Origin: Escherichia coli
GTDB lineage: Bacteria > Pseudomonadota > Gammaproteobacteria > Enterobacterales > Enterobacteriaceae
Reading direction: 5' to 3' (one strand)
Assembly: GCF_003334255.1 (NCBI RefSeq)
Contig: NZ_QOWU01000044.1
DNA length: 46,463 nucleotides
Shown here: in pieces, positions 3,887 to 46,329 of the stretch
How the letters are laid out: each line of letters opens with the position of its first letter
Numbering within the stretch: position 1 is the stretch's first letter
Translations under genes and position numbers: made by a program
The notes under the pieces: generated by a model
The model's input: the letters and a program-made list of their open reading frames with translations, nothing else
Databases searched by the model: none
What the model was told of the DNA's origin: nothing

Positions 3887-6499
3887 ATGACTCAACAGCC
3901 ACAAGCCAAATACCGTCACGATTATCGTGCGCCGGATTACCAGATTACTGATATTGACTTGACCTTTGACCTCGACGCGCAAAAGACGGTCGTTACCGCG
4001 GTCAGCCAGGCTGTCCGTCATGGTGCATCAGATGCTCCCCTTCGTCTCAACGGCGAAGACCTCAAACTGGTTTCTGTTCATATTAATGATGAGCCGTGGA
4101 CCGCCTGGAAAGAAGAAGAGGGCGCACTGGTTATCAGTAATTTGCCGGAGCGTTTTACGCTTAAGATCATTAATGAAATAAGCCCGGCGGCGAATACCGC
4201 GCTGGAAGGGCTTTATCAGTCAGGCGATGCGCTTTGCACCCAGTGTGAAGCCGAAGGTTTCCGCCATATTACGTATTATCTCGACCGCCCGGACGTGCTG
4301 GCGCGTTTTACCACCAAAATTATTGCCGATAAAATCAAATATCCCTTCCTGCTTTCCAATGGTAACCGCGTTGCGCAAGGCGAACTGGAAAACGGACGCC
4401 ATTGGGTACAGTGGCAGGACCCGTTCCCGAAACCGTGCTACCTGTTTGCGCTGGTGGCAGGCGACTTTGATGTACTGCGCGATACCTTTACCACGCGTTC
4501 TGGTCGCGAAGTAGCACTGGAGCTGTACGTCGATCGCGGCAACCTTGATCGCGCGCCGTGGGCGATGACCTCGCTGAAAAACTCCATGAAATGGGATGAA
4601 GAACGCTTTGGCCTGGAGTATGACCTCGACATCTATATGATCGTCGCGGTGGATTTCTTCAATATGGGCGCAATGGAGAATAAGGGGCTGAATATCTTTA
4701 ACTCCAAATATGTGCTGGCCCGCACCGACACCGCCACCGACAAAGATTACCTCGATATTGAACGCGTTATCGGCCATGAATATTTCCATAACTGGACCGG
4801 TAACCGAGTGACCTGTCGCGACTGGTTCCAGCTCAGCCTGAAAGAAGGTTTAACCGTCTTCCGCGATCAGGAGTTCAGCTCTGACCTTGGTTCCCGCGCA
4901 GTTAACCGCATCAATAATGTACGCACCATGCGCGGATTGCAGTTTGCAGAAGACGCCAGCCCGATGGCGCACCCGATCCGCCCGGATATGGTCATTGAGA
5001 TGAACAACTTCTACACCCTGACCGTTTACGAGAAGGGCGCGGAAGTGATTCGCATGATCCACACCCTGCTTGGCGAAGAAAACTTCCAGAAAGGGATGCA
5101 GCTTTATTTCGAGCGTCATGATGGTAGTGCAGCGACCTGTGACGACTTTGTGCAGGCGATGGAAGATGCGTCGAATGTCGATCTCTCCCATTTCCGCGGT
5201 TGGTACAGCCAGTCCGGTACACCGATTGTGACCGTCAAAGACGACTACAATCCGGAAACCGAGCAGTACACCCTGACCATCAGCCAGCGCACGCCAGCCA
5301 CGCCGGATCAGGCAGAAAAACAGCCGCTGCATATTCCGTTTGCCATCGAACTGTATGATAACGAAGGCAAAGTGATCCCGTTGCAGAAAGGCGGTCATCC
5401 GGTGAATTCCGTGCTGAACGTCACTCAGGCGGAACAGACCTTTGTCTTTGATAATGTCTACTTCCAGCCGGTGCCTGCGCTGCTGTGCGAATTCTCTGCG
5501 CCAGTGAAACTGGAATATAAGTGGAGCGATCAGCAACTGACCTTCCTGATGCGTCATGCGCGTAATGATTTCTCCCGTTGGGATGCGGCGCAAAGTTTGC
5601 TGGCAACCTACATCAAGCTGAACGTCGCCCGTCATCAGCAAGGGCAGCCGCTGTCTCTGCCGGTGCATGTGGCCGACGCCTTCCGCGCGGTGCTGCTCGA
5701 TGAGAAGATTGACCCGGCACTGGCGGCAGAAATTCTGACTCTGCCATCCGTCAATGAAATGGCTGAACTGTTCGATATCATCGACCCGATTGCTATTGCC
5801 GAAGTACGCGAAGCACTCACTCGTACTCTGGCGACTGAACTGGCGGATGAGCTGCTGGCTATTTACAACGCGAATTACCAGAGCGAGTACCGCGTTGAGC
5901 ATGAAGATATTGCAAAACGCACTCTGCGTAATGCCTGTCTGCGCTTCCTTGCTTTTGGTGAAACGCATCTGGCTGATGTGCTGGTGAGCAAGCAGTTCCA
6001 TGAAGCGAACAATATGACCGATGCGCTGGCGGCGCTTTCTGCGGCGGTTGCCGCACAGCTGCCATGCCGTGACGCGCTGATGCAGGAGTACGACGACAAG
6101 TGGCATCAGGATGGTCTGGTGATGGATAAATGGTTTATCCTGCAAGCCACCAGCCCGGCGGCGAATGTGCTGGAGACGGTACGTGGTCTGTTGCAGCATC
6201 GCTCATTTACCATGAGCAACCCGAACCGTATTCGTTCGTTGATTGGCGCGTTTGCGGGCAGCAACCCGGCAGCGTTCCATGCCGACGATGGCAGTGGTTA
6301 CCAGTTCCTGGTGGAAATGCTTACCGACCTCAACAGCCGTAACCCGCAGGTGGCTTCACGTCTGATTGAACCGCTGATTCGCCTGAAACGTTACGATGCC
6401 AAACGTCAGGAGAAAATGCGCGCGGCGCTGGAGCAGTTGAAAGGGCTGGAAAATCTCTCTGGCGATCTGTACGAGAAGATAACTAAAGCACTGGCTTGA
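3887..6499 (+). CDS. pepN: Aminopeptidase N
   Basis: 870-aa ORF beginning MTQQPQAKYRHDYRAPDYQITDIDLTFDL, containing the HEYFHNWTG zinc-binding motif. Confidence 0.97.
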   Translation: MTQQPQAKYRHDYRAPDYQITDIDLTFDLDAQKTVVTAVSQAVRHGASDAPLRLNGEDLKLVSVHINDEPWTAWKEEEGALVISNLPERFTLKIINEISPAANTALEGLYQSGDALCTQCEAEGFRHITYYLDRPDVLARFTTKIIADKIKYPFLLSNGNRVAQGELENGRHWVQWQDPFPKPCYLFALVAGDFDVLRDTFTTRSGREVALELYVDRGNLDRAPWAMTSLKNSMKWDEERFGLEYDLDIYMIVAVDFFNMGAMENKGLNIFNSKYVLARTDTATDKDYLDIERVIGHEYFHNWTGNRVTCRDWFQLSLKEGLTVFRDQEFSSDLGSRAVNRINNVRTMRGLQFAEDASPMAHPIRPDMVIEMNNFYTLTVYEKGAEVIRMIHTLLGEENFQKGMQLYFERHDGSAATCDDFVQAMEDASNVDLSHFRGWYSQSGTPIVTVKDDYNPETEQYTLTISQRTPATPDQAEKQPLHIPFAIELYDNEGKVIPLQKGGHPVNSVLNVTQAEQTFVFDNVYFQPVPALLCEFSAPVKLEYKWSDQQLTFLMRHARNDFSRWDAAQSLLATYIKLNVARHQQGQPLSLPVHVADAFRAVLLDEKIDPALAAEILTLPSVNEMAELFDIIDPIAIAEVREALTRTLATELADELLAIYNANYQSEYRVEHEDIAKRTLRNACLRFLAFGETHLADVLVSKQFHEANNMTDALAALSAAVAAQLPCRDALMQEYDDKWHQDGLVMDKWFILQATSPAANVLETVRGLLQHRSFTMSNPNRIRSLIGAFAGSNPAAFHADDGSGYQFLVEMLTDLNSRNPQVASRLIEPLIRLKRYDAKRQEKMRAALEQLKGLENLSGDLYEKITKALA

Positions 6500-44682: not shown

Positions 44683-44844
44683 TGAGTCACTCTCTATGAC
44701 AGATGTAATTAATTAAGCAGCATAATGATAATGCGTAAGGGCACCCAGAAGTTTTACCCATCTTTACGCATTTGATCTGGAACAGGTTTAACAGCGGATT
44801 ATCAGGTCATTAAGCAAATATAACGCCCTGAGAATTTCGACAGG

Positions 44845-44880
44845 CAAAAGAAAAAGGGGTTAGCATTTAGCTAACCCCTT
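44845..44880 (-). terminator. Rho-independent terminator downstream of the serT remnant
   Basis: aaggggttagc-attta-gctaacccctt hairpin, followed on the minus strand by TTTTCTTTT. Confidence 0.75.
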
Positions 44881-44888
44881 ATCTTATT

Positions 44889-44948
44889 TGGCGGAAGCGC
44901 AGAGATTCGAACTCTGGAACCCTTTCGGGTCGCCGGTTTTCAAGACCG
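44889..44948 (-). tRNA. serT: tRNA-Ser(UGA) 3'-terminal 60-nt fragment; not a complete tRNA (5' acceptor, D-arm and half the anticodon stem are missing); prophage attachment core remnant
   Basis: Reverse complement CGGTCTTGAAAACCGGCGACCCGAAAGGGTTCCAGAGTTCGAATCTCTGCGCTTCCGCCA matches the 3' part of serT. Upstream sequence (44949 onward) has no segment able to pair with the acceptor 3' strand. Confidence 0.85.
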
Positions 44949-45089
44949 AAGAAAAACAAATGAAAATCAGTGTAATACGTGAATCTGCTGAAAATTTAAT
45001 TAAATTTAACACCAAGAAAAATCAAGGTGTTAGGAAGTTGCTCATAGCTAGTATACCAAGTATTTTTGCCAGAAAATTTTCTGTATTGC

Positions 45090-46109
45090 CTACTTGCTAA
45101 CCACGAGCGGCAGATCCAGTGTTGGTGTGATTTTTGTTTTACGATCGTAAATCAACACCTGATTTTCTGTTTTATGCCCGCTGAAAATTTGTTTGTCGCG
45201 ACTGCTGCCTTCGTAATCTGAGATCCCCTTGGCTTTTATGTCGTGAAAATTGCACCCGAACGGAACGCCAACTTTTTGCTCGGCTGAGCGTTTAGCCTGA
45301 TTCCACCAGTTGTTCAGCGTTTTAGCTATGACTTTCCCGCCTTTGGTTGTATTGATCACATATTCGCATGTACAGGAAGATACATTTCGGGCTAACTGGA
45401 TCGCTGTACGTAATCGCGGTGACCATTCCTTGATTTGTTTGGTGCCGGTTTTGTTTTGCTCAATGTAGATCCCTTTATCCATAATATCCTGCCATTTCAA
45501 CTCAAGCACATCACCGAGCCTTGCCGCACAGAGATAGGAAATCTCCATTGCAATGCGTAACTGTGGAATTGCTTCCGCATATATCGCTGCATACTGTTCA
45601 TCGGTGATGTAAACAGTGCGGGCTTTAAGAGAGAATTTTCTGACTCCTTTACATGGGTTATTCTTCACGTATCCACGCTCATATCCCCACCCGTATACTC
45701 GACTCAGGCTTGCCAGTTCATGATTTGCCTGGGTCTTGCTCTCAAGCCCTCGTTTATCCATGAAAATTCTTACCTGCTCAGTTTTGACATTATCAGCAAG
45801 CACTTTTCCGAATACCATCAGCAACGCCTTCTGATGTTGTCGATAATCTTTTTGGGTTCGGGGGGCCAGTTCTGTAAATGCAGGGGAGTCCATAAACATG
45901 TGCCATAATTTAGCTACGGTCATTATGTTGTGGAGTTTTGCTTTTTCCAGTTCATAATTTTGCCAGACTTTAGCTACGCTGGTTTTCCGCACTCTTCCTA
46001 GCCCTATAGTTCTTGTACTTCCTTCTGGTTTCCACACGTAACTGTAACCATTCGATCTAACCCGCGGTGGCAGTACATTATCTTTTTTATTTTTTCTTGG
46101 TCTTCCCAT
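45090..46109 (-). CDS. int: Phage tyrosine integrase (lambda Int family)
   Basis: 339 aa; N-terminal MGRPRKNKKDNVLPPRV resembles the lambda Int arm-binding N-terminus; C-terminal region has an R...H..R...Y catalytic pattern (LGDVLELKW, HDIKAKG, SGHKTENQVLIYDR). Confidence 0.92.
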   Translation of the reverse strand: MGRPRKNKKDNVLPPRVRSNGYSYVWKPEGSTRTIGLGRVRKTSVAKVWQNYELEKAKLHNIMTVAKLWHMFMDSPAFTELAPRTQKDYRQHQKALLMVFGKVLADNVKTEQVRIFMDKRGLESKTQANHELASLSRVYGWGYERGYVKNNPCKGVRKFSLKARTVYITDEQYAAIYAEAIPQLRIAMEISYLCAARLGDVLELKWQDIMDKGIYIEQNKTGTKQIKEWSPRLRTAIQLARNVSSCTCEYVINTTKGGKVIAKTLNNWWNQAKRSAEQKVGVPFGCNFHDIKAKGISDYEGSSRDKQIFSGHKTENQVLIYDRKTKITPTLDLPLVVSK

Positions 46110-46329
46110 TGTTCAGTGCCTCAAAATCGGGTTCAGCAGAAACCAGTTCAGATGTTTTTGGCATCGTTGTCAGTCCGTGTGGAATATCCCTGCGTAGAAC
46201 TATTGGTTCGTTTTTAGGACCGATTACAAATGGGATGCCGTGCAGTCTTAACTGGTGTTGCTGTTTTGTGTATCGCTCGTATTTCGTGATCTCTTTAATC
46301 TCTGCTGGAGATAGAGTTAATTCGTACAT
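46087..46329 (-). CDS. xis: Excisionase-like protein
   Basis: 80 aa, MYELTLSPAEIKEI...NNGKTKKK; sits upstream of int and overlaps its start by 23 nt as in lambda xis-int; loosely lambda Xis-like at both termini. Confidence 0.65.
   Translation of the reverse strand: MYELTLSPAEIKEITKYERYTKQQHQLRLHGIPFVIGPKNEPIVLRRDIPHGLTTMPKTSELVSAEPDFEALNNGKTKKK

Follow-up and report, generated by a model that had tools for sequence, protein, structure and literature searches.

A DUF4224-family protein as the probable excisionase of a serT-integrated lambdoid prophage of Escherichia coli

We analyzed a 46,463-nucleotide stretch of Escherichia coli DNA (hereafter the window), in which the genes rlmI, yccX, tusE and yccA precede the end of an integrated prophage. 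A bidirectional terminator (44854-44880) lies between yccA and a tRNA-derived attachment (att) block, and the prophage genes run toward this block in the order exonuclease, DUF4224 gene, int and attL (Table 1), an arrangement repeated in phage Evi and in Citrobacter phage Chris1. The exonuclease gene is interrupted by the window edge, and the annotation of a 100%-identical locus places the full gene at 21698-24169 (locus L001). The wider setting is given by the genome NZ_AP022815.1, which is 100% identical here and carries a lambdoid prophage of ~50 kb in tRNA-Ser (serT), between yccA and hyaA, with the DUF4224 gene and int at its attL end. From that end, int and DUF4224 are followed by a 2.47-kb gene for a RecE-like exonuclease, then by dicB and genes for repressor/Cro-like regulators, and next by the replication genes, Q, the lysis genes and a complete lambda-like head and tail gene set. 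Of 5426 complete E. coli genomes, 745 contain at least 80% of the region 44700-46463, and the carriers of the int/DUF4224 region include Shiga-toxin-producing (STEC) strains and an O55:H7 strain.

Table 1. Features at the attL end of the prophage and regions of the DUF4224 protein; positions are those of the window unless residues are given.
Feature	Position	Strand	Description and basis
attL identity block, 65 bp	44884-44948	.	3' 60 nt of tRNA-Ser (serT) + 5 nt
Candidate Int arm-type site GTATACCAAGT	45051-45061	+	P' arm (44949-45090); int stop codon 29 bp away
Tyrosine integrase gene (int), lambda-type, 339 aa	45090-46109	-	BLASTP, PHROG, AF2; presumed partner of the DUF4224 protein
Overlap of the DUF4224 gene 3' end with the int 5' end, 23 nt	46087-46109	-	ORF coordinates
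DUF4224 gene, 80 aa	46087-46329	-	ATG start; = WP_000273151.1; predicted excisionase / recombination directionality factor
Exonuclease (RecE-like) gene, 3' end	46397-46463	-	Full gene 2.47 kb, cut by the window edge; 67 nt in the window
N-terminal region of the DUF4224 protein	residues 1-50		Predicted winged-helix DNA-binding domain; AF2 model
C-terminal region of the DUF4224 protein	residues 51-80		Low-confidence tail with the conserved motif EPDFxAL (residues 66-72)

Alignment with NZ_AP022815.1 showed that the 65-bp att block is repeated at the far end of the prophage (28750-28814 of locus L004), where an intact tRNA-Ser is annotated; at the block in the window ARAGORN found no complete tRNA. 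Because the identical far-end copy overlaps the annotated tRNA-Ser, the block in the window is identified as attL, with the crossover point lying somewhere within it. The phage-side copy at attR carries its own diverged version of the serT terminator hairpin, and attP thus mimics the tRNA 3' end plus terminator. In attP as rebuilt from the two ends of the prophage, the 11-mer GTATACCAAGT recurs identically (L004 28690-28700) in the P arm, which lies at attR outside the window (about 1239350-1239650 of NZ_AP022815.1), and that copy is accompanied by two degenerate tandem copies at a spacing of 11-12 bp (L004 28678-28711). Since it is present on both arms, we read GTATACCAAGT as a site of the Int arm-type rather than of a recombination directionality factor (RDF). 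It stays a sequence-based candidate with weak statistical support, since the single exact match in the window does not, taken alone, exceed the chance expectation (0.37).

The product of int aligns over its full length with lambda Int in BLASTP (25% identity, E 2e-26), an alignment that takes in the N-terminal signature MGRxR...LPP...NGY, and it matches integrase PHROG families. We also modeled with AF2 a fusion of the DUF4224 protein to residues 1-75 of Int through a (GGGGS)6 linker, using 19 paired sequences. Both domains were folded in this model, with the Int portion forming a three-stranded sheet with helices (pLDDT ~85-89). The Int N-terminus is a lambda-like arm-binding domain. An integrase of the lambda type requires accessory proteins that bend DNA, together with an RDF. 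The preliminary description of the locus had allowed that the true directionality factor might be encoded elsewhere in the element. We found none: the annotation of the ~50-kb prophage in NZ_AP022815.1 names no other excisionase, and a scan covering part of the prophage, namely ten small early-region ORFs (six labelled 'hypothetical protein' and four DUF-family or regulator genes), gave no match to an excisionase PHROG.

The ORF adjoining int codes for the protein MYELTLSPAEIKEITKYERYTKQQHQLRLHGIPFVIGPKNEPIVLRRDIPHGLTTMPKTSELVSAEPDFEALNNGKTKKK, which is small and basic, with a computed mass of 9.2 kDa and pI of 9.3. Its coordinates, 80-residue length and overlap with int, as first described, are borne out by the ORF positions. 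A short ORF inside a prophage that lacks an NCBIfam model might be spurious or decaying and functionless in itself, such as a leader region for int. The pattern of conservation effectively refutes this reading, which we regard as extremely improbable. First, a comparison of codons 1-50, which lie outside the int overlap, with four close alleles gives a dN/dS of 0.11-0.22. Second, against relatives at 60-65% protein identity the synonymous sites are saturated (pS 0.85-1.15), whereas pN is only 0.16-0.26, i.e., the protein has been kept nonetheless. Third, the ORF belongs to Pfam and PHROG families spread across the Proteobacteria, and the fold of its N-terminal part is predicted confidently. 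Thus, the ORF at 46087-46329 is a true gene under purifying selection. Neither a pI-like promoter within the ORF nor a terminator after it was found above shuffled expectation.

A single Pfam family, DUF4224 (PF13986), was recovered with this protein (i-Evalue 1.2e-8, 35.2 bits, query residues 5-48 against positions 1-44 of the 45-position model). Among the PHROGs, the protein matches phrog_1266, labelled 'excisionase', over nearly the whole profile (E 1.9e-23, residues 1-74 against positions 3-77 of 77), as well as PHROGs 8896 and 4764, which bear the same label, and ten divergent relatives match these same three PHROGs. This label is an annotation and not an experimental assignment. Both the HTH_17 (PF12728) and the TIGR01764 'excise' models gave no match to the protein of the window, nor did any NCBIfam model. 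A word-indexed search, an exhaustive phmmer search of 1.84 billion representatives and profile iteration together gathered 69 relatives, from Escherichia, Citrobacter, Salmonella, Klebsiella, Erwinia, Lelliottia, Pseudomonas, Pandoraea and metagenomes. All 51 of the collected relatives that were compared with the profiles match Pfam DUF4224; the HTH_17 model matches one of the 51 at E<=0.001 and four at E<=0.1, and one relative, P0070, reaches TIGR01764 at E 0.039, with 14.3 bits against a cutoff of 28.8 bits. The alignment of the family displays an N-terminal block of the form L-[TS]-x-x-E-[ILV]-x-E-[IL]-T-G-Y...Q...L...G-I-P-F...G..G-x-P-x-V-x-R, followed by a variable linker and the C-terminal motif E-P-[DN]-[FWY]-x-A-[LIV].

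The gene is a common E. coli prophage gene from an already catalogued family: the exact protein WP_000273151.1 occurs on at least 1000 contigs of the protein collection, and PGAP names it 'DUF4224 domain-containing protein' in NZ_AP022815.1. Our literature search found 'DUF4224' named only incidentally and no experimental study of a DUF4224 protein. Even at E<=1, tblastn against named phages returned just four records, none of them annotated as an excisionase. Some NCBI records of DUF4224 proteins or fragments (P0018, P0035 and P0151) carry the name 'histone-lysine N-methyltransferase', which is evidently a misannotation passed on among E. coli and Salmonella entries.

We then compared the gene and its overlap with int to the xis/int pair of phage lambda. 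In the lambda genome (J02459), xis (28860-29078) and int (27812-28882) likewise overlap by 23 nt and in the same register, and the stop codons of lambda xis and of the DUF4224 gene fall in the same register relative to the int junction. The sequence AATGGGAAGA is common to both junctions (46087-46112 in the window and 28857-28885 in lambda): in the int frame it reads M-G-R, the conserved Int N-terminus, and in the xis frame N-G-K. The int ATG, whose context at the overlap is A-ATG-GGA-AGA, sits inside the Asn-Gly codons of the DUF4224 protein tail ...NNGKTKKK. The N-G-K tripeptide is therefore present in both Xis tails because the conserved Int start is read in the other frame, and it is missing from DUF4224 members whose int does not overlap. 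The preliminary description had treated the position and the 23-nt overlap as diagnostic of a Xis. We found the overlap not to be diagnostic, since its length is no constant of the family: among the examined loci the DUF4224/int spacing ranges from an overlap of 62-65 nt to a gap of 26 nt, with 32 nt being the commonest overlap in E. coli. The upper value of 65 nt, in Chris1, reflects an upstream start picked by the ORF caller and becomes ~26 nt from the MGRPRK start. The allele of the window is 80 residues long, as against 83 for most E. coli DUF4224 alleles (tail ...KKKQKR), and this difference in length accounts for the 23-nt instead of the 32-nt overlap.

The same description had seen in the ORF a divergent relative of lambda Xis on the strength of its termini. 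The likeness is literally there, as MYELTL in lambda against MYLTL here and as a C-terminal NGK in both; it is, however, statistically undetectable, and such terminal likenesses are either generic or, as with the NGK, imposed by the int frame. That the protein truly belongs to the lambda Xis family (Pfam Exc), having diverged far from its other members, is a reading that we consider quite improbable, for all that its position, 23-nt overlap and junction register are as in lambda, its partner Int is a homolog of lambda Int, and the MY(E)LTL termini are alike. BLASTP against lambda Xis, with the sequence verified from J02459, yielded no alignment at E<=100; Pfam returns DUF4224 only, and Exc (PF07825) matches neither the protein of the window nor any of the 51 relatives. 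In a profile-profile comparison (hhalign) of 51 DUF4224 with 19 lambda-Xis-family sequences, the sole alignment sets helix 2, loop and wing of the ORF product (QQHQLRLHGIPFVIGPKNEPIVLR) opposite the equivalent lambda segment (VRRWVRECRIFPPPVKDGREYLFH). This pairing hints at a shared architecture but counts for nothing statistically, its probability being 0.24% and its E-value 0.25. Furthermore, lambda Xis ends in a basic tail in which nothing corresponds to the conserved acidic EPDFxAL. The protein matches excisionase profiles, namely PHROGs 1266, 8896 and 4764, but its placement in the lambda Xis family finds no support from PF07825, BLASTP or hhalign; DUF4224 is a separate family.

Set side by side, the two proteins remain comparable in their general design. 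Both are small and basic and are encoded directly upstream of a lambda-type Int with a 23-nt overlap; both have, by prediction in the case of the DUF4224 protein, a winged helix at the N-terminus and a flexible tail after it, and the same role in an excisive intasome would be expected of them. They differ in sequence (LTxxE..LTGY...Q..L..GIPF...G.P.VLR and EPDFxAL in DUF4224, against W..R..IFPPP.KDGREYLF and a basic LLKRIRNGKK tail in lambda Xis) and in charge, with a pI of 11.2 for lambda Xis. Lambda Xis structures are PDB 1LX8, 1RH6 and 2IEF. The codes 2IEF and 1RH6 are given in PMC11963761.

Among PDB sequences, neither the protein nor the profile of its family found matches above chance level. 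An AF2 model from a 51-sequence alignment has pLDDT values of 81-92 over residues 1-50 and 55-60 in the tail. Residue 5 lies in a strand, residues 8-15 and 20-30 form helices, and a hairpin (35-36/42-45) is followed by a short helical turn. In the fusion with Int, residues 52-66 and 75 onward fall below a pLDDT of 50, with block means of 41-45 over residues 51-80; the tail was left unstructured and did not dock on Int, and the fusion model is uninformative about a contact between the two. The order of strand, helix, helix, hairpin and short helix is shared with RdfS (8DGL), Pukovnik Xis (4J2N) and BldC (6AMA/6AMK), which are its best structural matches. RdfS, an RDF of the HTH_17 type, is arranged as beta1, alpha2, alpha3, beta2, beta3, alpha4 and superimposes on BldC and the mycobacteriophage Pukovnik Xis at <2 Å (PMC11963761). 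Foldseek against the PDB placed BldC (6ama/6amk) at the top and also listed GlnR and CarH (MerR-family) and Pukovnik Xis (4j2n), with a best E-value of only 0.76. Against BFVD, the top matches are unnamed viral proteins (probability 1.0, E ~1e-3), plausibly DUF4224 family members themselves; these are followed, at E 0.2-1.3, by 'Excise, DNA binding domain, excisionase family', MerR-type HTH, HTH-domain and TorI-like proteins. In terms of family models the protein differs from the HTH_17/TIGR01764 RDFs, which it does not match, and its structural scores lie below significance. Taken together, the modeled residues 1-50 probably adopt a winged helix of the MerR/HTH_17/excisionase class, with results that are consistent and none individually significant. 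The preliminary description would have been refuted by the lack of any excisionase fold or family hit. This outcome did not arise: the PHROGs supply family hits, and the order of elements in the model is compatible with a winged helix, with fold matches that are statistically weak.

Of the 39 loci that we examined, 31 are IMG/VR viral contigs, two are named phages, five are contigs with divergent relatives and the remaining one is the window; many of these are close E. coli relatives, and about ten distinct lineages are represented. In 37 of them, the next downstream ORF on the same strand is a homolog of the Int of the window (phmmer E 1e-5 to 1e-237). Of the two exceptions, one contig ends after an Int-like N-terminus (VGRQRKTNKHLPRGM...) and the other has a different ORF downstream. 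Precomputed Pfam calls likewise show DUF4224 followed by Phage_integrase in Pandoraea, in Pseudomonas (beside mutS) and on metagenome contigs. In Pandoraea sputorum (LT906435.1, ~4.106-4.114 Mb; L007/L008), the DUF4224 gene abuts a tyrosine integrase gene in an inovirus-like prophage with Zot, a secretin and Rep. The family would, on account of this element, serve filamentous as well as tailed prophages. In our view, nothing speaks more strongly for a part in site-specific recombination than this tie to the integrase across unrelated phage types.

In Chris1 (ON041214.1, L006), the 'integrase' CDS at 3966-5261, of 431 aa, is extended upstream over the whole DUF4224 ORF in another frame, and the small gene is unannotated there because of this. 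The 177-aa record P0023 looks like a frameshift fusion of a DUF4224 N-terminal domain to the Chris1 int frame.

The experimentally studied excisionases that we compared as possible relatives, Gifsy-1 Xis, Pf4 XisF4 and Rac XisR, are of other sequence families than DUF4224. Rac XisR (YdaQ) of E. coli K-12 has a similar neighborhood, with int, a small xis-like gene and a recE-type exonuclease gene in a lambdoid prophage. The exonuclease-small gene-int order at our locus parallels the Rac order recE ... xisR-intR; the small proteins are unrelated in sequence, and XisR was set aside as a relative for this reason despite the like neighborhood. The Rac prophage also differs in having another integrase and ttcA as its attachment site. 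Gifsy-1 Xis was likewise discarded as a characterized relative, being of the AlpA/FPPP-loop type (PMC2603039). Pf4 XisF4 was compared because of the DUF4224 gene beside int in the inovirus-like prophage of Pandoraea; it is encoded elsewhere in Pf4 and resembles Pukovnik Xis (PMC7379572), and it was not taken as evidence on DUF4224.

The predicted fold class, MerR/BldC/HTH_17-like, is common to transcription factors, and the DUF4224 protein could accordingly be a winged-helix regulator that acts mainly on transcription, for example by repressing or timing int or the early genes, or that combines both roles. Several RDFs are dual-function regulators (PMC7498355; PMC7379572; PMC11963761), and a double role here would parallel P2 Cox, 186 Apl, TorI and Pf4 XisF4. 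A pure regulator would nevertheless not need the tie to int seen in 37 of 39 loci and in an inovirus-like element; no operator-like target was identified, and the prophage already has separate repressor/Cro-like regulators. We therefore judge a mainly regulatory function unlikely, though it is the better placed of the alternatives to excisionase. The best-supported reading, with a probability of roughly 0.7, is that the ORF codes for the recombination directionality factor (excisionase) of the serT lambdoid prophage, belonging to the DUF4224 family and not being a sequence-detectable relative of lambda Xis. The part of the initial guess that spoke of a directionality factor is thereby upheld, on the PHROG labels, the pairing with int, the winged-helix-like predicted fold and the lack of any rival candidate in the genes covered.

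By analogy with the winged-helix RDFs lambda Xis, Pukovnik Xis and RdfS, a mechanism can be proposed for this excisionase, in which DNA binding, target sites, Int contact and the stimulation of excision are inferred. The N-terminal ~50 residues would fold as a strand-helix-helix-hairpin winged helix, and this domain would bind the P-arm repeats of attR, probably cooperatively, and bend the DNA. Such bending would favor an excisive intasome with Int on attL x attR and inhibit integration. The flexible C-terminal tail may contact Int through EPDFxAL, which is a candidate Int-contact element; this acidic-hydrophobic motif contrasts with the basic tail of lambda Xis. Expression of the DUF4224 gene and int would be coupled by their overlap and by joint transcription in the early leftward operon.

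A bolder proposal, which we put forward only tentatively, is that DUF4224 constitutes a distinct clade of winged-helix RDFs that recruit or modulate the integrase via the acidic-hydrophobic EPDFxAL motif and serve elements ranging from lambdoid siphophages to inovirus-like prophages; such proteins might also regulate int or early transcription. What the analysis offers is a reasoned function, that of an excisionase, for a protein that RefSeq labels only as 'DUF4224 domain-containing protein', and its practical value is modest. If true, a DUF would be retired and one more sequence family would be added to the winged-helix RDFs, with the view of excision itself unchanged. For E. coli, the assignment points to a gene relevant for the mobility of serT-integrated lambdoid prophages.
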